IMG/VR virus record: IMGVR_UViG_3300021387_001157
Location: 1 to 64,000 of that record
DNA: 64,000 nucleotides
Reading direction: 5' to 3' (one strand)
DNA from: a virus
Lineage: Duplodnaviria > Caudoviricetes
Both the position numbers and the translations under genes were made by a program. Below the pieces are notes generated by a model. The model saw only the letters and a program-made list of their open reading frames with translations. It was not told where the DNA came from and did not search any database. Each line of letters opens with the position of its first letter. The first letter of the stretch is position 1. This document shows, one piece after another, positions 13,145 to 63,555 of the stretch.

Positions 13145-13963
13145 TCAGATGACTACGAAGTTGGTGTAACCCTTTTCTTCAGCCACCTTACCCCAATCTC
13201 GATAAGATTCGGTTGCAAACACTTTGTCAAAGTTCTTACAGAGGTTGTCGAAACCGACTTCGTTGACGATGTGTGTAACTTTGATGTAGAACTCGGCATC
13301 TGGGAACATTTCTTTCAAAACTTTCAATTCACCCAAGAACGTACCACCGGCGTCACAAAGGTCGTCATAGAGTATGATTTTCTTTCCGTCATTGACGAAA
13401 CAGTTTTCGTTATTCAGATTGAAAGATTTGATACGACCGGTCTCGATGTCACGTTCTTTTTCAAAGTATGCATCTTGTTCCTTTTTTCCTCCGTATCGTT
13501 TTAATGCCCCTTCGTCAGGGAACACCAAATCCACGTCTCCCATATTCCTCTCCAAGAGAAACTTATAAGGATTATAATCTAGAGTTACCGAATTTCTGAT
13601 TTCTAGCATAGTTCTCTCGGAATGTGCTTCAAGTATTGCACAGTCCTGATAACCCATCTGACTAATCATCTTACCGACAATTTTGAGCGTGAACGGTCTT
13701 TCAAAACTCATCACACGGTCCATCCTCATACCCATAAGATAACGAATGTGAAGATTCCAAATGACACCTTGTCTGTCGAGAATGTCACCGACTTGTAAAA
13801 GAATGAACAATTCTTCAGCATTGGTAATTCTACATTCGACCAAATACTCTTCTTTTCTGTTGGGTTCTTCAGTTAGAACAAACTGTACCTCACCATCGGG
13901 GAATCTGTCAATACGGTATTTTACATCGCTTTTTTCTACAGACGATAAATTAATTACTTTCAT
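13145..13963 (-). CDS. prs: Ribose-phosphate pyrophosphokinase-like protein (Prs / phage Adps-type)
   Basis: RFPDGE, MRMDR, EAHS, FPDEGALKRY, KERD, DDLCDAGGTF PRT motifs. Confidence 0.85.
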   Translation of the reverse strand: MKVINLSSVEKSDVKYRIDRFPDGEVQFVLTEEPNRKEEYLVECRITNAEELFILLQVGDILDRQGVIWNLHIRYLMGMRMDRVMSFERPFTLKIVGKMISQMGYQDCAILEAHSERTMLEIRNSVTLDYNPYKFLLERNMGDVDLVFPDEGALKRYGGKKEQDAYFEKERDIETGRIKSFNLNNENCFVNDGKKIILYDDLCDAGGTFLGELKVLKEMFPDAEFYIKVTHIVNEVGFDNLCKNFDKVFATESYRDWGKVAEEKGYTNFVVI

Positions 13964-14708
13964 AATCTAAAATGAACATTTGTACGGGTTCAAGTTTGAA
14001 AACACTTCTTTCGTGCATACTTTTGATTTTATCAATTTTGGTAACAGACGAGTCGTTGTTGCACATACCTTCCGGTTCGACACCTTCCCTTATGTATCTG
14101 TCAAGTTCAGAATATGTGAAACCAAACTTCTCTTCGTCGGTGTTGGAATTTGGAAGACCGTCATCCGGTGTTTTATGTACCAGATGGTGTGGTAAACCAA
14201 GAAAGTCTCCAATTTCAATAACTTCTGATACCGTCAGGTTTCCAATCGGTTCAACGTCAGATGCACCGTCACCATATCTTGTAAAATATCCTACATAGTT
14301 TTCAGATGCATTGCAAGTACCAACGACACGTCCGTTGTTAGACTGACTGACGGCATAAAGTGTCGTCATACGTATTCTCGCTGGAAGATTTGTCTCGGAC
14401 TGACTTGACAATTCAAAACCGATTTCCTTTTTGAGTGCTTCAACAGCCGGAGCGATATTCACCGTTATGTAACGTATTCCAATATGTTTGCACACTTCAA
14501 TAGAGTCATTGATATCCTTCTGAACACCATTTGGCATAAGTACTCCTAACACACGGTCTGGACCGAGAGCACGGGCACATAATTCGGCGACAATTGTACT
14601 GTCTTTTCCACCAGATATTCCAATCACTGCATTACAACTTGGTCCGTTGTTATCGAACCAGTCTTTAATCCAGTTGATTAAATCGTTTGTTACTTTTTCC
14701 ACATTCAT
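13950..14708 (-). CDS. nadE: NH3-dependent NAD+ synthetase
   Basis: GISGGKDS PP-loop, NLPARIRMTTLY, GTCNASENYVGYFTRYGD, TPDDGL..TDEEKFGFTYSELD; no glutaminase domain. Confidence 0.95.
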   Translation of the reverse strand: MNVEKVTNDLINWIKDWFDNNGPSCNAVIGISGGKDSTIVAELCARALGPDRVLGVLMPNGVQKDINDSIEVCKHIGIRYITVNIAPAVEALKKEIGFELSSQSETNLPARIRMTTLYAVSQSNNGRVVGTCNASENYVGYFTRYGDGASDVEPIGNLTVSEVIEIGDFLGLPHHLVHKTPDDGLPNSNTDEEKFGFTYSELDRYIREGVEPEGMCNNDSSVTKIDKIKSMHERSVFKLEPVQMFILDYESN

Positions 14709-15652
14709 AATAAAATACTTTTTAAAAGGTTTTCTTTATCATTTATAACAGTATAAGGTGTTTCTTTTTTATAGTGTGTGAAGTATATTACTTTCACATT
14801 ATTTTCGTCACACAGAAGTTTTTTCTTTTTATCCAAAGATTGTAGATATTCAAATTGTTTTTCTGAAAATTCAAGTCCCTTTCCCGAAAAATCAACTGGT
14901 TCAAAATGTTGCATTCCTTGACATTCTATTGCTATATTTAAATCTGGAAGAAAAAAGTCAAGTCTTTGTCTATTATTCAACCAATTGAACGTTTTTTGTT
15001 CTTCAAACAATATATTTTCAGATAAAAGTATGTCTCTAACTTCGTCTTCAAGTTTTGATGATACACAAAACGGACAACCTCTTTTCAAAGAAAGATGTAC
15101 ATGTGGTGACTGAAAGAAATGTCTTCCACATTTTCTGCATATTATCTCAACCTTTTTGTTTACTCCTTCATACTTTACTAATGAATAATCATATTTATCT
15201 TTATGAATGGTTCTTGCTTTTGATTCAAATTCTTTAGATGATTCTATCAAAATCTGATGGTTTTTCTGATTTCGTTTTTCTTTTCCACATAGACCACAAC
15301 CATATCCATTCAACAAGTCGTTTGGTCTTATCCAAAATTCACCATGTTTTTTGCAGATTACACAAACTTTTTTATGTGCATTAACATACTTAACTTTTGA
15401 ATAATCATAATCTGGAAACTTTTTATTCAATTCTGATATGAAAAATTCTGTTGTTTTATGTTTTCCTTTGCAATAAGGACAACCTTGACCGTTAAGGTGA
15501 GCATGTGGTGTCTGCCAAAATTCACCATGTTCTGGACATATTATACAAACTTTTGTGGTGTTGTTAACATACTCTACATTTGAATAATCATACAATATTC
15601 CATGTTTTAAAATAGATTTCTCTATGAAAGATTCAACAGTATTTCTTTTCAT
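14705..15652 (-). mobile_element. Free-standing homing-type endonuclease (Zn-ribbon repeats plus Vsr/PD-(D/E)xK-like nuclease)
   Basis: Three DYSxVxY..KVxIIC..HG..F...GCPxC repeats, then RLDFFLPDLNIAIECQGMQHF; inserted in NAD operon with its own CATAAATA motif (15676-15683). Confidence 0.75.
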
Positions 15653-15712: not shown

Positions 15713-17251
15713 TTAAACGTTGGATGACAATCTTTCACGAATTTTTGAAAATGACTCAACATTGTAAGGAATACCGTCTTTGAATACCATAACCATTGCA
15801 TTTTCGTGATTTTTTGAGTACTCTTCATACTGTTCCTTGTTTAGTTCATCCTTGTATTCAAAATGGTCGTCTTTTCTTTCAACGAAAACAAGTCCCTTGT
15901 GTGATTTTTTAAGTTTACTTGTATCTGTTTTCGGGTCTTTGAAAATAAACAATTCTTTTCCGTCAATGATACCGAAAGTTGCTTTACATGCACAACCAAA
16001 CATGTCTCTTGTATTGACAATGATTCTATCGTTTTCAAAAACTGCAGAGAAACAGAAAGCACCAACACCAAACACGACATTGTTTGCTGCAAATCCTCTA
16101 CGGTCAAGTTCTTTCCATATTTTACCGACAACATTCAAAGTACATCCATCACCAAGAATGACTCCGATATGTTGGTCAAGAACCTTATATCCCTTTTTGT
16201 TAATTGTTCCACCAAAAGTATTCCATAAGGATTGAACAGTATCTACAGTCACTGTGAATTGGTCGCCGGAATCTGGTCTGATAAGTAATTTCCCATTGTG
16301 GTTCAACACATCCTCTTTCAAAGAAGGAATTATATTGTCAACCATATTCCAATAATCATATGTGTCTGAAACCATAGAAAAACTTGAATTTGGGTAAAGT
16401 TCAGTGAGTAATTTTCTGACAAATGTCTTTTCGTCACCATCGATTGCAAAATTTGCTCCCATAACAGAATGTTCTGTTGACACAGCTCCACAACCAATAT
16501 GACTACCTGAGCAATCTGCATCGTAATATTCGTTGATATATTTCAACGATGGAATTGTACTTGTCTTGTTAAACGACAAAAGCCAAGCGGATGAACATCT
16601 TACTGATTCTTCAAGACATGACATACCTCTCATACCGAAATCGGACATTGCATTTCTCACATCAACATCGTCATCTACAGTTTTACCATACCAATACTTT
16701 GCAAGTTTGTAATACATATGCCCGATTGTGGCATGGTTTGAGATTTTCCAAAGTTCTGATTGGAGAATACATTCAATCCACTGGACCAGCCAAGCAAATT
16801 CCGGATGTGTATTTCTGATTTCAATACAGGGAACTCCCATATTGACGAGAGAACCTTCAGGAAGAGCGTTGATTTGGAGAGGAAGATAACCAAGTTTGTG
16901 GAGTTTTTCAATATGCTCTGTCTTGTAATTTCCATCACCTAACTGAACGTTCATATAGGTTTTGTATTCGTTCAAAACAGATTTAAGATTCTTTTTGAAA
17001 AAGTTCTTTTCGAAATAATCGACGAGGTATTCCTTGATAAATGCTTGGAGACCAAACCATACCATCTTCTGATTTTCCTCCTTTTCGAAATAACTCTTAC
17101 GTGGTACCCAGTAAGATACGAGGTATTCAAGACCTTCTGGATACATCATGTTGTGTACGGTCTTATAGGTGTCACACAACAACATTGGATTCATATCTAA
17201 CATAATTGCTTTATTTTTTGAACTAAATAGTTTATATTCACGAGATTTCAA
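15713..17251 (-). CDS. NAMPT-fold nicotinate/nicotinamide phosphoribosyltransferase (true start may be 17203 or 17194)
   Basis: CDTYK, DFGMRG, STEHSV, SDTYD, IRPDSGD, GDG, FGVG, KDPKTD, KKSHKG motifs. Confidence 0.9.
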   Translation of the reverse strand: MKSREYKLFSSKNKAIMLDMNPMLLCDTYKTVHNMMYPEGLEYLVSYWVPRKSYFEKEENQKMVWFGLQAFIKEYLVDYFEKNFFKKNLKSVLNEYKTYMNVQLGDGNYKTEHIEKLHKLGYLPLQINALPEGSLVNMGVPCIEIRNTHPEFAWLVQWIECILQSELWKISNHATIGHMYYKLAKYWYGKTVDDDVDVRNAMSDFGMRGMSCLEESVRCSSAWLLSFNKTSTIPSLKYINEYYDADCSGSHIGCGAVSTEHSVMGANFAIDGDEKTFVRKLLTELYPNSSFSMVSDTYDYWNMVDNIIPSLKEDVLNHNGKLLIRPDSGDQFTVTVDTVQSLWNTFGGTINKKGYKVLDQHIGVILGDGCTLNVVGKIWKELDRRGFAANNVVFGVGAFCFSAVFENDRIIVNTRDMFGCACKATFGIIDGKELFIFKDPKTDTSKLKKSHKGLVFVERKDDHFEYKDELNKEQYEEYSKNHENAMVMVFKDGIPYNVESFSKIRERLSSNV

Positions 17252-17774
17252 TTTGGCAAGATTTCATAACTTCAAACGTTGCCTTTTGATTTTCTTCACT
17301 TCCAAACAAAGGAGCACAACAATCTGAAATACATTTCACAATAGCCTCTGGAAATTCGGACTTGATGATGAGGGCGTTTGACACAACACATATTGATGTC
17401 ACAGTTCCAACAAAAGTAAACTCACAATCATCACCGTCAATACCGACGGTGTGTGTAATAAATTCATACCAATTTTTATATCCAAACGTAGGTTTGTCCA
17501 CAAAATGGATATTTTCACCGTTGAATTGTAGTTCAGAAACAATCTCCCACCCCCACGTATTTTGTATACAGTGTTTTACTGGTAGATTTTTTCCTTCTTG
17601 TGTTTCCAAATAATTTTCTTGATGTGTGTCTCTTGTGAAGATAATGTGGTCATATTTTCCACTTTCTATTTCTCTTTTTATGTTTGGAATAATTTCCTGT
17701 GCAGCCTGGTTAGCAAGTGAACCAGTAACAAAGTCGTTCTGCATATCAACGACTACTAAAACTTTTTTTGACAT
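17238..17774 (-). CDS. pncA: Nicotinamidase (isochorismatase family)
   Basis: VVDMQNDFVTGSL, TRDTH, LPVKHC, VDKPTFG, GTVTSICV; start ATG 17774. Confidence 0.9.
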   Translation of the reverse strand: MSKKVLVVVDMQNDFVTGSLANQAAQEIIPNIKREIESGKYDHIIFTRDTHQENYLETQEGKNLPVKHCIQNTWGWEIVSELQFNGENIHFVDKPTFGYKNWYEFITHTVGIDGDDCEFTFVGTVTSICVVSNALIIKSEFPEAIVKCISDCCAPLFGSEENQKATFEVMKSCQIEIS

Positions 17775-17799
17775 AACTATATAAGTTTGATTATTATAT

Positions 17800-17873
17800 A
17801 GTAGTTTTGGAACATCCTCCTGGTCTCGTGTCACCAATATATGGCGACGACCGGATTTATCTCCTCACTACCG
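17800..17873 (-). ncRNA. Candidate structured 5' leader RNA of the NAD operon (riboswitch-like)
   Basis: GC-rich island in AT-rich spacer; nested helices GGUAGU/ACUACU, GGAG/UUCC, UCC-GGUC/GACC-A-GGA, GUCGCCA/UGGUGAC. Confidence 0.45.
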
Positions 17874-17874
17874 T

Positions 17875-18306
17875 TTATTTTTCTGACTTTTCCTTTTTTT
17901 CAAAAGGTTTCTTGTGCCAGAAATCGACATACCCGTCAATTTTATTGGATTCGAGTGTGGTGAGATATGCTTTGAATACCTCGATACGCTCGTAGCTGAA
18001 TCCCATCTTCCCATTTTCCTGTCTCTGATAGGAAACAACCATATTCGGGTCTTTTGAATCGATTGTAATCCAACCGACTTCACCACCACGATATGCTTTC
18101 TTCCCACGTTTGATGTGGTCAAGAAGTTCGATGGTTGTCTTAAAGTGGTACTCTTTAAAGTGCTTGAGTCTTCTTTCAGACTCGGATGGTGTCAGTTTCT
18201 TTTCCTTTTTACGTTTTTTAATAGGTTTACTGTTGTCCAACTCACCAGACATCAGTTTTTCAAAATTTTTCTGGGACTTACCGTCCATCATTTCTAAAAT
18301 ATCCAT
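17875..18306 (-). CDS. Hypothetical basic protein
   Basis: ORF; ATG 18306 lies just downstream of the ATAGTATCTTT motif. Confidence 0.6.
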   Translation of the reverse strand: MDILEMMDGKSQKNFEKLMSGELDNSKPIKKRKKEKKLTPSESERRLKHFKEYHFKTTIELLDHIKRGKKAYRGGEVGWITIDSKDPNMVVSYQRQENGKMGFSYERIEVFKAYLTTLESNKIDGYVDFWHKKPFEKKEKSEK

Positions 18307-18359
18307 CGTATTAATTTTTTTCAAAAGATACTATTTTTCCCCAAAAAAAAATTAAAATT

Positions 18360-43561: not shown

Positions 43562-43685
43562 AACTTTTTCTTTTTTTTTTACAAGATTCTGTTCAACATT
43601 TTTCTGCTGTCAAGAATCTTTAGTTAATAATTCCGTTTATTGTTTTGTAAAGATACTATTTTTCCTATTAAAAATAACAAAAAAA

Positions 43686-44596: not shown

Positions 44597-45208
44597 TTAT
44601 TCCTCCACATCTTTATAGTACAATACTGTTGGTGTTCCGTCGTGAATGTCAATCGTTTTTCCGTAGATTGCAGAAAACGTCTTCTTGTTGAACGGTCTCG
44701 TGATGAGGTGGATACCGTGAGGTGTCGGAATCTCGGCGACAATCTTCTCACGGTCAAACGGCTCACACTGGTTGACTGCTTCGATGATGTACGAGAGTTC
44801 TATGTTGTCCTTGGTGTCTACATCGACAATCCAAGTCTTGTTTCCGTCACAGGCACCGGTCTGACCACAAGCAGTTTCGAAAATACTACGAAAAGTGTGG
44901 TATTCCTCGTGTGCAACAAGGTGTGCCATAAGTTCAAGACCCTTCATAGACACCTGCTTCTTGTTTTTCTTGTTGAGGTTGATGCAGGCACGGGCGTTGA
45001 AGAACTCACAGAGAGACTTGATTTCCTCACGTCTCTCTTCAAGGTACTCGATGGAGTCGGCGAAATATGATTTGATGATACGGACACTGCTTGAAGCACG
45101 ACCATCGTTCTGGTCCTTACCTCTCTGCATAATCTGAATCATATAGAAGTCACCATCGTTCTTGAAGTCGAGTAACTTTTCAATCTGGTCAAAATTATCT
45201 ACTGTCAT
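44597..45208 (-). CDS. Phage protein with AEP/primpol-like motifs
   Basis: WIVDVD (DxD) and TPHGIHLI (TxxGxH). Confidence 0.45.
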   Translation of the reverse strand: MTVDNFDQIEKLLDFKNDGDFYMIQIMQRGKDQNDGRASSSVRIIKSYFADSIEYLEERREEIKSLCEFFNARACINLNKKNKKQVSMKGLELMAHLVAHEEYHTFRSIFETACGQTGACDGNKTWIVDVDTKDNIELSYIIEAVNQCEPFDREKIVAEIPTPHGIHLITRPFNKKTFSAIYGKTIDIHDGTPTVLYYKDVEE

Positions 45209-45258
45209 ATCGTTTTTTTTTCAAAGATACTATTATTTTTTTGAAATATCAAAATTTT

Positions 45259-46724: not shown

Positions 46725-46772
46725 ATATGTTCTTTTTTTCAAAGATACTATTTTTTTCTGGAAGTTCAAAAT

Positions 46773-47396
46773 TTAAATTGGTTTAGGACATAGTTCCACC
46801 ATGTCGTGGTGCCACTTTTTCCAAATGGGTTTGTATTTCTTGTTGAAATCTTCCCATCCGAAACCGTTGTTCAAATCATCCATGATTTCTTTGTTGAGTT
46901 CCACACCACACTTGTAGTCCACAATACGACCCCACTTTGCAATCTGCACGGCGAACATAAGAATACGTATAGAATGGAAGAGTGACTTTGCACCACACCT
47001 CATATCAAGGTCTTTTTCCACCGTCATCTTTTTCTTGGCCTTGACCCACGAATTGGACGAGACTCCGGAAAACTCTTGTCTCAACTTCCACTTGTCAAGT
47101 TCGAAATGAATCAAGTAGTTGTGGCAGCAATCCTGAAAAAGTGCTTCTAAGGCAAAGATACGATGTTCTCTAAGCATCTCTATGAAATCACTTTCACGGA
47201 CATACTGCATGTCTGCCTGTCGACCGAACTTCTCTACACTCATAGAGAATATTCTATTCTCGTATCCTGTCTCTGATGTCGATGTGGTATTGGACAAATC
47301 AAAGTAGTCTGGAACGATGAAACCGAAATCCAAATCTGACATTTCATCATTCGTTCCAAAGAGATACGAACCCCGTTCAAACATTAAATTACTCAT
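46773..47396 (-). CDS. Pol-beta-family nucleotidyltransferase
   Basis: RGSYLFGT..MSDLDF (GS..DxD); KSLFHSIRIL; start ATG 47396. Confidence 0.75.
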   Translation of the reverse strand: MSNLMFERGSYLFGTNDEMSDLDFGFIVPDYFDLSNTTSTSETGYENRIFSMSVEKFGRQADMQYVRESDFIEMLREHRIFALEALFQDCCHNYLIHFELDKWKLRQEFSGVSSNSWVKAKKKMTVEKDLDMRCGAKSLFHSIRILMFAVQIAKWGRIVDYKCGVELNKEIMDDLNNGFGWEDFNKKYKPIWKKWHHDMVELCPKPI

Positions 47397-47528
47397 ATTA
47401 TAATTGTTATTTTTTCGAAAATCGAAAAATCTTTTTCGAAATTGATTTTTCACATATCATTTTTTCGATGATTTTTCGAAATTGATTATTTAATACGTTT
47501 CAAAAGATACTATTTATTTTCGAAAAAC

Positions 47529-47562
47529 AAAAAAAAAGGAGGATTTTTTTCCTCCTTTTTTT
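47529..47562 (-). terminator. Intrinsic terminator
   Basis: AAAAGGAGGA..TCCTCCTTTT. Confidence 0.75.
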
Positions 47563-53005: not shown

Positions 53006-53171
53006 ATATATTATTCTTCTTTATTTTTCTCAGCCTCAATAAATTCGTTCAACACCGAATTTTCATATCCCTTTTCAATCTCGTTCCTAATCTCAGTCTC
53101 CTTCATTTCCGGACTCACGTAAATAAATTCTACCATAACTATATTATAAAGATACTATTTTTTATAAAAAA

Positions 53172-53690
53172 ATGAAAAACAAAAAAACCCCGTCCGAAAA
53201 CTGGATACGAGAATTTAATAAAGCAGCAGAATCGACAGCAGACTCATTGAATACAATCCTGTCCCAAATCGGATTGCACGTGGTAGAAGTCCCACACGAC
53301 TTCTCAAACACCGATTCTAAAAAATACGGAATATTCCTACGGCACGGAAAATCATTCAACGAAAACACCATAGAAATCTCACTCAACCCAACACTCGTTT
53401 TCGAAAAACTTTCTGAACTCGGAAAGACCTCTCTCCGTGATGCCAGACATCAGGCGTCTATCCTCACCGTCCACGAGACTGCCCACGGAATTATAGACCA
53501 TATAAGGAAACACTATATGGATTCTGGACTCACATACACGTCAATCGTATCTAAAATCAAGAATAACTCACAGGAAGAGGAAAGAACTGCAAGAGACTTC
53601 TCACTGAACTTCGTCGACCCCTCCTACAAGTCTCTCCTGAGACTTTCCCTTGCAGAACTCCTTGAACTCACGGTACGTGGTGAAACTTAA
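53172..53690 (+). CDS. Putative HExxH metalloprotein
   Basis: TVHETAHGIIDH..EEERTA. Confidence 0.5.
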   Translation: MKNKKTPSENWIREFNKAAESTADSLNTILSQIGLHVVEVPHDFSNTDSKKYGIFLRHGKSFNENTIEISLNPTLVFEKLSELGKTSLRDARHQASILTVHETAHGIIDHIRKHYMDSGLTYTSIVSKIKNNSQEEERTARDFSLNFVDPSYKSLLRLSLAELLELTVRGET

Positions 53691-56337: not shown

Positions 56338-56741
56338 ATCTTTAATCTTTTTTTTTTATAAAGATACTATTTTTTATTTGAATTCTTCAATTATTATACA
56401 AATAAAAAACATTAATCAATAAGAAAGCAACACATAAAAAACAATTTTACCATAATTATATAAGATATAAGTTATTTTACATATAAAATATAACAAAGTT
56501 CAGACAATTTTATAAGATTCATGAAGATAATCTATTTAAATTTTTGGACATCCACTTTTTTAGAACCTTGAATTTTTGAAACTTAAAATAAACATATTGA
56601 TTTTCAACAAGTTAAAAATTAATAAATGTAATTCGCTGAAAATGAAGCAAACTCGAAACTGAGCCTTTTAAGTAAAGTCCTCAATATGCCCAATATTCGA
56701 AAAAACACGATTTTCCCCAAAAAGGACCTTTTTGGATATAC

Positions 56742-56817
56742 CCAAAAATACCCCTTTTTTAGGGGGTCCAAAATACCCCTTTTTAGGGGGGTCCAAAATA
56801 CCCCTTTTTAGGGGGGT
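56742..56817. repeat. Three ~25-bp tandem repeats CCAAAATACCCCTTTTTAGGGGGGT
   Basis: Read directly; each unit is self-complementary (ACCCC/GGGGT). Confidence 0.9.
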
Positions 56818-57317
56818 CGAAAAAAGGGCCTATTTTGGGATTTCGAAAAATATGGTGTTTTTTTGAAATACCCATTTTTCTATATTTTGAGAAAATGCAC
56901 TTTTTGTCATTTTTTAGATTTATATGATTTTTATCATATTTACAAAATTCGTGTTTTTTTTTTGGTTTTTTCATTTTTTCTTATTTCTGAGTATTTTGTA
57001 AAAACGACATATTTTACAAAATACCTAGTTTTTGTAAAATATTGATTTTTTATATTTTATATAAAACCCCCATATTTCGAAAATCTACGTTGTTTCTTTC
57101 AATATATTAATAATGAATATTTGGTGTTTTGTGTATATATCTGATATATACAGATATTCATTACAAATGGATTTCCACAATTATACCATACTATCTCCCT
57201 ATAATCATCAGTGCCTCAATTGGATACCTTCGGATGTTCAGCTTGAGTGGTGTGGTGATGTCCATCTACATCCAGTTGGAACATCAACCGGTTGTACCAT
57301 GCTTCCTGGAAAGCTTC

Positions 57318-61000: not shown

Positions 61001-63555
61001 TGAGTTTTAGTGGCATATCCGAGTAACTCTCAGTTCCGTCGGTCACATATTCGTAGAATACCACCTCGATACAGTCGTCGTCTTCGTAGTAGACTTCCTC
61101 CGCTTCACGGAAAAGCTTCAGAAAGTCATCGGTGATTCCGAGCATCATATACTCTACCATTGGTCTTTTTATGAAGTGCATCATCTCTTTTAATACTTTC
61201 TTTGCCTCCTTTCGTCCGGTGGCGATGTAGATTCTCCCGAATGACGAGTCGGTTCTCTCGATTTTGGTCTCGATGTAGTAGCGGTCAGAGGAATCCTTCT
61301 CGATGGAGACAATGGTGTTTTCCTCACCATACCCGTTGAACATATGCACACTTGCTATTGTGGTAGTTTGTGCATTGGACATCAGAGTGGTGACGATTAG
61401 CAGAATTAGTGTTATGATATACTTTTTCATTTTTTTCGAAATTGATGTTTTTTGGTTTTGGTTTGTGGGGAGCGGTCTATGCCGCCCCCCCCAACAAACA
61501 CTTAGTACTTAAAGGTTAAAAAAACATTTTATATTATGGGAGGGGTGGTGGTTGTTTTGGTACCACCCCATACCCATTTGATGAAAGAAGATTACATCAC
61601 AATGACGGTGATTCCGATGAAAGTTGGTTGTTTCGATGAGATGTATTCATCGATAAAATCTTCGGCTTCCTCCTTCTCGGTGAAGATGTAATGTACGTCA
61701 CTGATGTTCATCGGGTCGGTTGTTGTTGAATCGACCAAGATGTGTTCTCCGTCTGGAGAGGCAACGATAAGAGATGGGATTACCGAGATTTCGTTGTCGT
61801 CATTGATGACCGGTGTCCAAACGACGGGGAGTCCGAGTTCATCAAGTGATGTGTCAGTAGTATTGGATACGGCTATTGTAAGTGAGGCAACCAACGGGGA
61901 GACTATTCTTTCCATGATTGCACGTGCAGTTTCTGTGTCGAAGTGTTTCTGTGTGTTGATTCTCATAGTTGTTATTTTTTTAATGTTTATATTTGTTTCT
62001 TTTTAAAAGATACTATTTATTTTTAAAAGATTAGAAAGAATTTTGTTTTCTTTGTAAATTGTTTCTTTCTTTTTTCAGTCTGTGAATGTCTTTGCAGGCA
62101 TCTGTGTAACTCAGTTTTGCCTCTTCAAGGTCTGATATGTAGTCTCCTATTGTTATAGGTTCATATGGGTCTGGGTAGAATGTCTGAATACTATGTTTGG
62201 AGAGTTCAATTATTCTCATCCAGTATGAGGCAGCCTCCCTCCTCATAAAGAGTCTTCTTTCGATAGACCTTATCTCTTCTTTTATTTGTTCTTTTGTTTT
62301 CATGCATTTCCAGACACGCCTTTGGCGGTGAGTATGATTTGTGGTTTTTCGAAAGACACCGTGCCACAGAAGTAGTCGAGTTCCTTCATAGTGGTTTGGT
62401 CGATGTCGATTTCTACAACAGACAGTCGGAATTCTATCCTGTCACGGTTGATGTTCATATTACCTATACGTTGGATTCCAAGAGGAGGGTATATTTTACC
62501 GTCACTCATCTTGATTGGTTGTTCGTTTATGATTTTGTTGATTTGTTCAAGGGCGTTCTCTCTGCTTCCACACTCACGTGCTTGACGGAGACTCTTGGTC
62601 ATCCAGTATCCACATGCCCATTCGAGAAGACCTGTTTCGGATTCAACATTCTTCATATCGGCTATGAAAGCACGGATGAAGTATTTCTTGTTGGGTTTGA
62701 TGTCTTTCATTGTATTTCCTTTTATTTCTGATTCAAACTTTTATAATATTCATAATATGTGTCAATCCATCCGGTTTCCAATTCATTTAATATCTGCTAT
62801 GGGAGAGAAAACACGAAGTATGTTCCGTACACACAAAAGATACATAAGAATATGAGCAACATCAGATTGACATCGATTTGTCCGAATGCAGTGTTGATAA
62901 GAATCCCGAGATAGATTCCGTCGATGGTTATCATCAAGATGTACAGCACAACTTGTATGAATTCTGGGATTTTGACCTTGTTTTTCATTTTCATTCTTTT
63001 TTTCGAAAGAGGGTGGGGTCTCCACCCTCTTCTTTTGTAAAACCTTTATTACATTTTGGCGATGATACGTGCCAGCAATTTGATAACCATCAAAACTTCG
63101 ATGTCAATTTCAATTTCGTCTTCATCTTCATCCTTATCTTCATCTTCAAAGATGTCATCGATGCTGGGAAGATAAACGACTCGTTTACATCTAGCAACGT
63201 CACTGATTTCATCCTCATCACTATATTCGGGAATGAGGTTTTTCTCTAAGAGAAAATATGCAGCCTCGCTGAACTCGGTGAAGATATAGGGAACTTCCTC
63301 AATGGGGGTCGGGTTTGTGTTCGGAGAACAAACCAAGATGTTTTTTCGGTCGTCAGTAAGGACCAATATTGAGGAAATAATTTTGGCATCACCATTTCGG
63401 TTTACAACAGGTGTCCAAACGAAGGGGACTCCAATTTCGTTTCCGATTTTGTATAATGATTCACCAGTTTCACGTTGGATGGACATCATATTGTTAGCCC
63501 TGTATGTATCCAATGTGTAAAACTCTAATTCTCTGTTGTTTTCTGTGAGTCTCAT
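58062..63555 (-). other. Run of small early-type hypothetical genes, several membrane-bound (58062-58301, 58279-58809, 59034-~59330, 59330-59731, 59733-60197, 60194-60607, 60617-60961, 60975-61430 signal peptide, 61592-61966, 62031-62303, 62300-62710, 62797-62994, 63049-63555)
   Basis: Co-oriented ORFs with overlapping start/stop codons; host-type promoter motifs at 62005-62018 and 63615-63628. Confidence 0.65.

Follow-up and report, generated by a model that had tools for sequence, protein, structure and literature searches.

Genes and features at the locus

The window analysed here, a stretch of 64,000 nt, belongs to a single 193,840-bp virus record with a GC content of 35.5% and a block of tRNA genes. 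On its minus strand, an ORF of 138–149 amino acids is followed by a leader, pncA, a gene of the NAMPT/NAPRTase fold (hereafter NAMPT-like), an HNH homing endonuclease gene, nadE and a Prs-like gene (Table 1). The HNH gene, which lies between the NAMPT-like gene and nadE, contains three internal repeats of about 200 nt (family D16). In the related locus L003, described below, it is missing at this position and nadE directly follows the NAMPT-like gene.

A TATCTTTG-containing motif recurs ahead of genes in this phage, and one copy precedes the ORF upstream of the hairpin. TAnnTTTG is the −7 box of the Bacteroidota type. If the motif is a promoter, as we infer, this copy likely marks the start of a transcript that comprises the upstream ORF, the leader and the operon. 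The repeated motif ...AAATAGTATCTTTGAAA... occurs on the minus strand at 18311–18357, 43636–43682, 45207–45256, 46725–46774, 47490–47536, 53135–53181, 56344–56393 and 61990–62039. Because it contains the Bacteroidota-type −7 box TAnnTTTG, we read these repeats as probably the promoters of this phage and as a hint to the phylum of its host.

Table 1 Features of the leader and of the operon that it precedes, in window coordinates
Feature	Position	Strand	Basis
Promoter-like motif copy ATAGTATCTTTTG (coding strand), Bacteroidota TAnnTTTG type	18311..18357	−	repeat families D8, D13, D15
Upstream ORF, no family assignment, 138–149 aa, lysine-rich	17875..18291	−	shared at this place with L003 alone
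Main irregular hairpin of the leader	17800..17872	−	fold and shuffles, homologue folds, manual and CM-fitted alignments
P1a, outer stem, 6 bp	17867–17872/17800–17805	−	fold
P1b, 4 bp	17861–17864/17809–17812	−	fold
5 × 5 purine-rich internal loop	AUAAA 17856–17860, GGAUG 17813–17817	−	fold
P2a, 3 bp	17853–17855/17818–17820	−	fold
Bulged A	17821	−	fold
P2b, 4 bp	17849–17852/17822–17825	−	fold
ACGA bulge, 3′ strand	17826–17829	−	fold
P3, 7 bp (longest uninterrupted helix)	17842–17848/17830–17836	−	fold
P3 loop UAUAU	17837–17841	−	fold
A/U-rich unpaired linker AUAUAAUAAUCA	17788..17799	−	alignments; related to UAAUACAAAU... in homologues
P4, 4-bp hairpin AACU-UAUAU-AGUU, abuts pncA AUG	17775..17787	−	alignments
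pncA, nicotinamidase/isochorismatase family, first gene after the leader	17238..17774	−	Pfam PF00857, E 3.4e-19
NAMPT/NAPRTase-fold (Namat-like) gene, 35 nt past pncA	15713..17203	−	Pfam PF04095, PF18127
HNH homing endonuclease inserted in the operon	14705..15652	−	phrog_559, E 4.7e-64; Pfam DUF4379/DUF723
NAD synthetase NadE	13950..14708	−	Pfam PF02540, E 1.6e-59
Prs-like (Adps-like) ribose-phosphate pyrophosphokinase-family gene	13145..13963	−	phrog_619, E 1.2e-51

Fold and stability of the leader hairpin

A sequence-only reading of this DNA had drawn attention to a 74-nt sequence, which we located at 17800–17873 on the minus strand. Its predicted minimum free energy (MFE) is −29.7 kcal/mol, compared with −15.6 ± 2.8 kcal/mol for 200 dinucleotide shuffles (z = −5.13), none of which was as stable. 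About 24 bp are stacked in the hairpin, interrupted by two loops and two bulges, one of the loops being a 2 × 3 loop between P1a and P1b. The location, the multi-helix fold with purine-rich internal loops and the ACGA bulge thus agree with the description in that reading. In a sliding fold of the whole genome, the hairpin was comparable in stability to the tRNA genes of the phage. The most stable 80-nt segment (−35 kcal/mol) lies elsewhere, at 56720–56844 on the plus strand, in an array of four 25-nt units in tandem, each of which folds into a CCCC-loop-GGGG hairpin.

The upstream ORF stops 3 nt before the hairpin, whose other end lies 25 nt ahead of the pncA ATG (17774–17772), the distance that had been estimated as about 25 nt. 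No U-run follows it, the sequence past the stem being AUAUAAUAAUCAAAC. The canonical terminators of this phage are perfect GC-rich stems followed by T-runs, and a terminator scan lists those and omits the hairpin, in accord with the earlier statement that the element has no U-tract and is not a terminator. That reading had also called the hairpin GC-rich; this applies to the window's phage, where its GC content is 48% against 35.5% for the genome, but is not a conserved property, as the homologues described below have 30–38% GC.

An AUG on the 3′ side of the internal loop opens a frame of 12 codons (17777–17815, −) whose UAG lies inside P4, 2 nt before the pncA AUG. The equivalent AUG in L003 is in frame with pncA. 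A small upstream ORF starting at this AUG (17815–17813) was rejected as a functional element, its position and frame not being conserved, and since the 12-codon frame is not conserved in the other lineages it is probably incidental.

Homologous leaders in other phages

PncA-anchored searches over viral, metagenome and genome collections yielded 320 loci (denoted by L numbers; G numbers denote their whole records), and a homologous leader was present in six of them: L003; L001, L002, L081 and L213, which form one lineage (L001-type); and L085. By its leader, L003 is the nearest relative of the window's phage, and the seven leaders, including that of the window's phage (the own leader), represent three diverged lineages.

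The leader is about 100 nt long, and the hairpin is its upstream module. All seven share one architecture. An outer stem is followed by a purine-rich internal loop with AUAAR on its 5′ side, then by P2a (3–4 bp), a 1-nt 3′ bulge, P2b (4 bp) and a 4–5-nt A-rich 3′ bulge, and then by P3 (6–7 bp) with a 4–5-nt loop, an A/U-rich linker and P4 (4 bp) with a UAUAU loop. The larger 3′-strand bulge reads ACGA, AUAA, AUCAA, AGAA or UUAAA, and the 1-nt bulge is A or U. The P3 loop is UAUAU in the own leader and L003, UAUUU or UAUCU in the L001-type leaders and GAGU in L085. Of the six homologues folded independently by MFE, five gave this architecture. The plain MFE fold of L081 differs; L081 fits the architecture in a coordinate-defined manual alignment, and L213 fits it in both the manual and the covariance model (CM)-fitted alignments.

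The gene upstream of the leader varies among the lineages, whereas pncA is constant. In the own locus and L003 the leader is intercistronic, 3 nt past a stop codon, and the upstream ORF of these two loci is absent from the L001-type loci. There, the leader starts about 25 nt past TTGTTATATTTA, with a small 5′ hairpin of variable loop in between; because this promoter-like sequence lies about 25 nt ahead, the leader would be a 5′ UTR in the L001-type loci. Forward copies of TTGTTATATTTA(G/A)T number 43, 15 and 35 in G001, G002 and G004 (the records of L001, L002 and L213), compared with 9, 2 and 7 in the reversed control. The motif, exemplified by L001 2866–2882, is probably the main promoter type of these 150–410-kb phages and is distinct from the TATCTTTG-type motif that recurs in the window's phage.

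The leader is a single-copy element, with one match in the own genome and one in each of the three relatives' records that were scanned for copies; the record of L003 (G003) lay outside the scans with a model suited to its leader type. With the seven-sequence model, no leader beyond the seven was found in 277 of the 320 pncA-anchored loci (L328–L370 left out). None was found in 151 sampled Bacteroidales genomes, a result of little weight since bacteria offered no positive control. In the GenBank phages, megablast of the locus gave no match, and tblastn of PncA gave matches of at most 45% identity with other leaders upstream. A search of the genome contig collection returned PncA at no more than 50% identity. 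Some 60 nearer PncA relatives (59–71% identity) are present in the protein collection; the six homologous leaders come from the 320 loci. Exact-pattern scans of viral contigs with AACTTATATAGTTATG and GGAAATAAAAATCCACAG returned only known members and chance matches (L373 and L374, both with GGAAATAAAAATCCACAG, being chance), and the pattern AAGGAGATAARTCCG gave more than 117 matches, which were taken as chance. Weak CM matches at window positions 14744–14814 and at L085 2676–2755 were rejected, both lying inside coding sequence.

Other phages carry different structures ahead of pncA. In another phage group, a perfect 9-bp hairpin lies about 32–57 nt upstream of the gene; its 6-nt loop occurs in both orientations, reading ATAACA in part of the contigs and TGTTAT in the rest (L008, L019 and L021 versus L067 and L077), as if recombination between the arms had flipped the loop. 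The L009–L076 group has a different conserved leader, ...AAAGCGGAATTTCTTCTGAGTTTTCAGAG..., about 40–90 nt ahead of pncA, with two small hairpins. This leader is present in many gut phage contigs of about 150 kb and is unrelated in sequence to the own leader.

Selection on the RNA structure

Comparison of the own leader with L003 revealed five pairs of P2b/P3 that are altered on both sides, one that is altered on one side and none that is broken, with the unpaired bases, P1b, P2a and P4 almost identical. Over the three lineages, MAFFT failed to produce a structural alignment, and manual and CM-fitted alignments were used instead. In the seven-row CM-fitted alignment, which is fitted to the structure and so favours it, and which holds seven sequences from three lineages, 90.5% of the cells pair, compared with 63% when the partners are shuffled and 31–43% when they are slid by 1–3 columns. 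Twenty-one of the 24 pairs are altered on both sides, and none of 500 shuffles reached any of the measures. The coordinate-defined manual alignment gave the same picture, and RNAalifold recovered the structure. A covariance model built from the four L001-type leaders only, with 31 kb scored without filters, retrieved the own leader, L003 and L085 at full length as the three best matches outside its training set (28.0, 27.9 and 26.4 bits; E 0.002–0.005). A bare structural descriptor consisting of helix and bulge lengths only was rejected as uninformative, with 402 matches per Mb versus 497 in shuffled sequence.

The sense strand folds better than the antisense strand in all seven cases. G-U pairs occur, including a U-G pair in one P4 copy, which points to RNA rather than a DNA palindrome. 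The leader is also better conserved than its surroundings: between the own locus and L003 identity is 76% for the leader, 62% for pncA and 59% for the upstream ORF, and in pairs of L001-type loci it is 86–90% for the leader versus 76–83% for pncA. These comparisons show that the structure of the RNA strand is under selection; the element is also single-copy and tied to pncA. Conservation and covariation in related phages, which the sequence-only reading had named as a check of its proposal, are clearly present (six homologues; 21 of 24 pairs), and its view of a structured RNA leader of an NAD operon is supported.

The start-codon hairpin P4

P4 and the linker are the most conserved part of the leader, and within each homologue group the linker is near-invariant in the alignments. 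The UAUAU loop of P4 is invariant in all seven leaders and in three further copies ahead of NAMPT-like genes, with the AUG 0–1 nt past the stem. The stem varies (AACU/AGUU, AGUU/AACU and AAUU/AAUU at pncA; AUCU/AGAU and AUCU/AGGU at the NAMPT-like genes of relatives), and all of these variants pair, one of the latter with a U-G. In L001, L002 and L081, where Prs-like and radical-SAM genes lie between pncA and the NAMPT-like gene, the NAMPT-like gene is preceded by this start region as well (…AUACAAnU…AAAAUCU-UAUAU-AGAU/AGGU-AUG). No clear P4 copy was found at the NAMPT-like gene start in the own locus or in L003.

In the manner of an operator hairpin, P4 abuts the start codon, has a conserved loop and keeps its stem by covariation. 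Since it adds only about −1.4 kcal/mol yet is kept by compensatory change, it would need a partner to matter. P4-like hairpins at ATGs are not strikingly rare in the AT-rich own genome (6 versus ~1.75 expected). A general promoter or start signal was rejected as an explanation of P4, the motif being rare in four genomes. A DNA operator palindrome was rejected as well. The half-sites swap (AACU/AGUU versus AGUU/AACU) instead of being fixed, as would be expected if a protein bound the palindrome as DNA, and a T-G is present in one copy.

Two further pairings were noted near the starts of these genes. The 35-nt spacer between pncA and the NAMPT-like gene contains a hairpin, AACU-AUUU-AGUU (17221–17232, −), with the same stem as P4, about 17 nt before the NAMPT-like ATG; this hairpin is missing in L003. 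The sequence AUGUCAA, comprising the start codon and the four bases after it, is complementary to UUGAUAU, which lies 18 nt downstream in the codons for a conserved VDMQ motif, both in the own locus (17742–17774, −) and in L003 (3001–3033).

A possible translational operator and its alternatives

The leader is a real, uncatalogued element and a candidate control element of the pncA-led, putative NAD+-rebuilding operon in a clade of large phages. Tentatively, we propose that it is recognized by a trans-acting factor and functions as a protein-bound translational operator controlling the initiation of pncA. The factor is more likely to be a protein than a metabolite. It would recognize the 1-nt bulge and the 4–5-nt A-rich bulge on the 3′ strand, which lie 4 bp apart in a fixed geometry beneath the capped helix of 6–7 bp and above the purine-rich internal loop. 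The operator would be the marginally stable P4 with its invariant UAUAU loop abutting the AUG. Through P4, the factor, which may be a phage or a host protein acting as at the MS2, T4 RegA or T4 gp43 operators, would gate the access of ribosomes to pncA and hence to the genes that closely follow. Where the NAMPT-like gene is separated from pncA, its own P4 start region might keep both genes in one regulon. Recognition by a factor is preferred because the stems turn over completely while the bulge positions and several unpaired bases stay, and because the element is present once per genome, is specific to NAD genes and has an operator-like hairpin that recurs on a second gene. A protein-bound operator fits better than a metabolite sensor, since the best-conserved part is the start-codon hairpin, which recurs at the second NAD gene. 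Several points count against the operator. No candidate for a binding partner or cognate repressor is common to all loci, the neighbouring ORFs being without family assignment, and the upstream ORF is absent from the L001-type loci. The evidence comes from seven sequences of three lineages in an alignment fitted to the structure, P4-like hairpins at ATGs are not strikingly rare in the genome, and the own locus and L003 have no clear P4 at the NAMPT-like gene.

Were the bulged helix itself to bind an NAD-related compound and thereby change access to the start codon, the leader would be a riboswitch of a new class, with NAD+, deamido-NAD, NaMN, nicotinate or nicotinamide, ADPR or ADPR-PP as its ligand, and would couple the operon to NAD+ depletion. 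The exclusive association of the element with NAD genes, the conservation of unpaired bases while the stems covary and the bulged coaxial stem-loop, a design it shares in general terms with one NAD+-I domain (PMC7297122), would all suit such a function. In addition, when 30 nt of coding sequence are included, the MFE folds of L081 and L213 pair the 3′ half of the hairpin with codons ~5–10. This alternative pairing suggests two states near in energy in these loci; it is not kept in the own leader, L003 or L085, and is a lead and not a finding. Against a riboswitch, Rfam gives no relevant match even at E ≤ 10, conservation of unpaired bases is limited to a few positions, mostly A or U, loops and bulges differ in sequence among the leaders, and the fold lacks a multi-helix junction. 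Nor is any pseudoknot, alternative pairing or expression platform conserved across the three lineages. The distribution is narrow, with none in the 151 sampled Bacteroidales genomes, and the most conserved part is a start-codon hairpin that also stands alone at a second gene. We therefore consider a riboswitch unlikely. We judge it similarly improbable that the hairpin is a processing or stability element without a regulator. As a cleavage site of the RNase III or RNase E type, or as a protective hairpin, it would separate the pncA message from the upstream ORF and set the half-life of that message. Its intercistronic position 3 nt past a stop codon in the own locus and L003, its length and irregularity without a U-tract, as in the T7 R sites, and the absence of an evident expression platform would be expected of such an element. 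Yet it is present once in a 194-kb genome with many operon junctions, and its longest uninterrupted helix has 7 bp. The bulge positions and unpaired sequence are kept while the stems turn over completely, neither of which a generic stabilizer needs, and in the L001-type loci the element is preceded by a promoter-like motif of its own and by another small hairpin on the 5′ side. Least probable by far is a terminator or attenuator of the upstream gene, which a stable hairpin directly past a stop codon might suggest: the U-tract is absent in all seven sequences, this phage terminates at perfect GC-rich stems with T-runs, the 25 nt between hairpin and ATG leave no room for a promoter, and the L001-type element lies downstream of a promoter-like motif.

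Implications for phage NAD+ reconstitution

Bacterial immunity that depletes NAD+ is countered in phages by NAD+ reconstitution pathways (NARP1 and its relatives), a response that has been recognized recently. Our literature searches found no regulatory RNA described on phage NAD genes, nor any control of phage NAD+ reconstitution genes. The leader, an RNA element supported by covariation, specific to these genes and without an Rfam entry, provides a concrete handle on how they are controlled. Its small size suits in-line probing, EMSA and reporter assays, which might lead to a new riboswitch class for an NAD-related ligand or to a new phage translational operator and its binding protein, and the leader model can serve as a search tool for such operons in metagenomes. 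A more speculative notion, which we regard as doubtful, is that the leader reads the breakdown of NAD+ by host defence, either as a phage riboswitch aptamer or as the site of a moonlighting NAD-enzyme repressor that is competed by its nucleotide substrate. In either form, falling NAD+, or rising ADPR or nicotinamide, would turn on the counter-defence operon strictly on demand, and the leader would be the first example of a sensor RNA coupled to an anti-defence pathway of a phage.

Comparison with known RNA elements

The 64-kb window gave no match to Rfam 15 at the gathering score. At E ≤ 10, only two chance matches (E 8–9) were obtained over 17600–18100, both outside the hairpin, and none to the NAD+-I and NAD+-II models against which the sequence-only reading had proposed a search. 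That reading had seen a partial match to the core of the NAD+-II (pnuC) riboswitch. The NAD+-II riboswitch, which precedes pnuC in Streptococcus, consists of P1/P1a and a pseudoknot over the ribosome-binding site, varies hardly at all in sequence and controls the initiation of translation (PMC7749635; PMC10085692). The present leader resembles it as the leader of an NAD-salvage gene. Complementarity of the loops or the internal loop to the start region is not kept across the three lineages, so there is no pseudoknot of the NAD+-II type; the UAUAU/AUAUA match of the own leader and L003 is lost in the L001-type leaders and L085. Since none of the defining features of NAD+-II is present, the proposed likeness is unsupported. 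The NAD+-I riboswitch of Acidobacteria, found upstream of nadA, is built of two bulged stem-loops in tandem; each has a 7-bp P1a and carries on its 5′ strand an 8-nt bulge, ACANCCCC, with a GYG internal loop at a distance of 7 bp (PMC7297122). A single domain of it shares with our leader only the general design of a coaxial stem-loop with bulges ahead of an NAD gene. The leader differs in having one domain, with 1-nt and 4–5-nt A-rich bulges on the 3′ strand, and no C-run, ACANCCCC or GYG sequence.

Two structural identities were considered and rejected. A K-turn at the ACGA bulge was dismissed on sequence, as no GA precedes the capped helix on its 5′ side. The phage has a Ro60-like gene, for which the leader might have been a Y-RNA-like ligand; this was dismissed because Rfam gave no match and L003 does not keep the outer stem.

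In guanidine-II (mini-ykkC) riboswitches, two hairpins carry the same short loop, ACGR, and the second lies at the ribosome-binding site. The own leader and L003 recall this arrangement, as P3 and P4 both have UAUAU loops; unlike in guanidine-II, the loop identity is lost in the L001-type leaders and L085, the loops are not ACGR and there is no Rfam match. RNase III sites of phage mRNAs have about two turns of near-continuous duplex and occur as several related sites per genome. Phage T7 has about 10 such sites per genome (R1.1 type), which are irregular hairpins between cistrons that contain internal loops, lack a U-tract and are built of ~10-bp stems on either side of one loop. The present element differs from them in its one copy per genome, its helices of 3–7 bp and its two conserved 3′ bulges.

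Among phage translational operators, the coat-protein hairpins of MS2, Q-beta and PP7 lie at the replicase start, the T4 gp43 operator is also a hairpin and the sites of T4 RegA lie on several early genes. In the T4 gene 32 leader, a structured nucleation site is followed by an A/U-rich stretch that extends to the start codon. The leader has no sequence likeness to any of these operators. Unlike the MS2-type sites it includes a large bulged hairpin 12–18 nt upstream, and, unlike those operators generally, it would function in hosts that, as the promoter motifs suggest, largely lack Shine-Dalgarno-led initiation. It nevertheless resembles phage operators in its setting, in having a small start-codon hairpin with a sequence-specific loop (P4) and, in the relatives, in the presence of the same start region on more than one gene of a functional set. 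With the T4 gene 32 leader, it shares a structured module followed by an unstructured A/U-rich linker.
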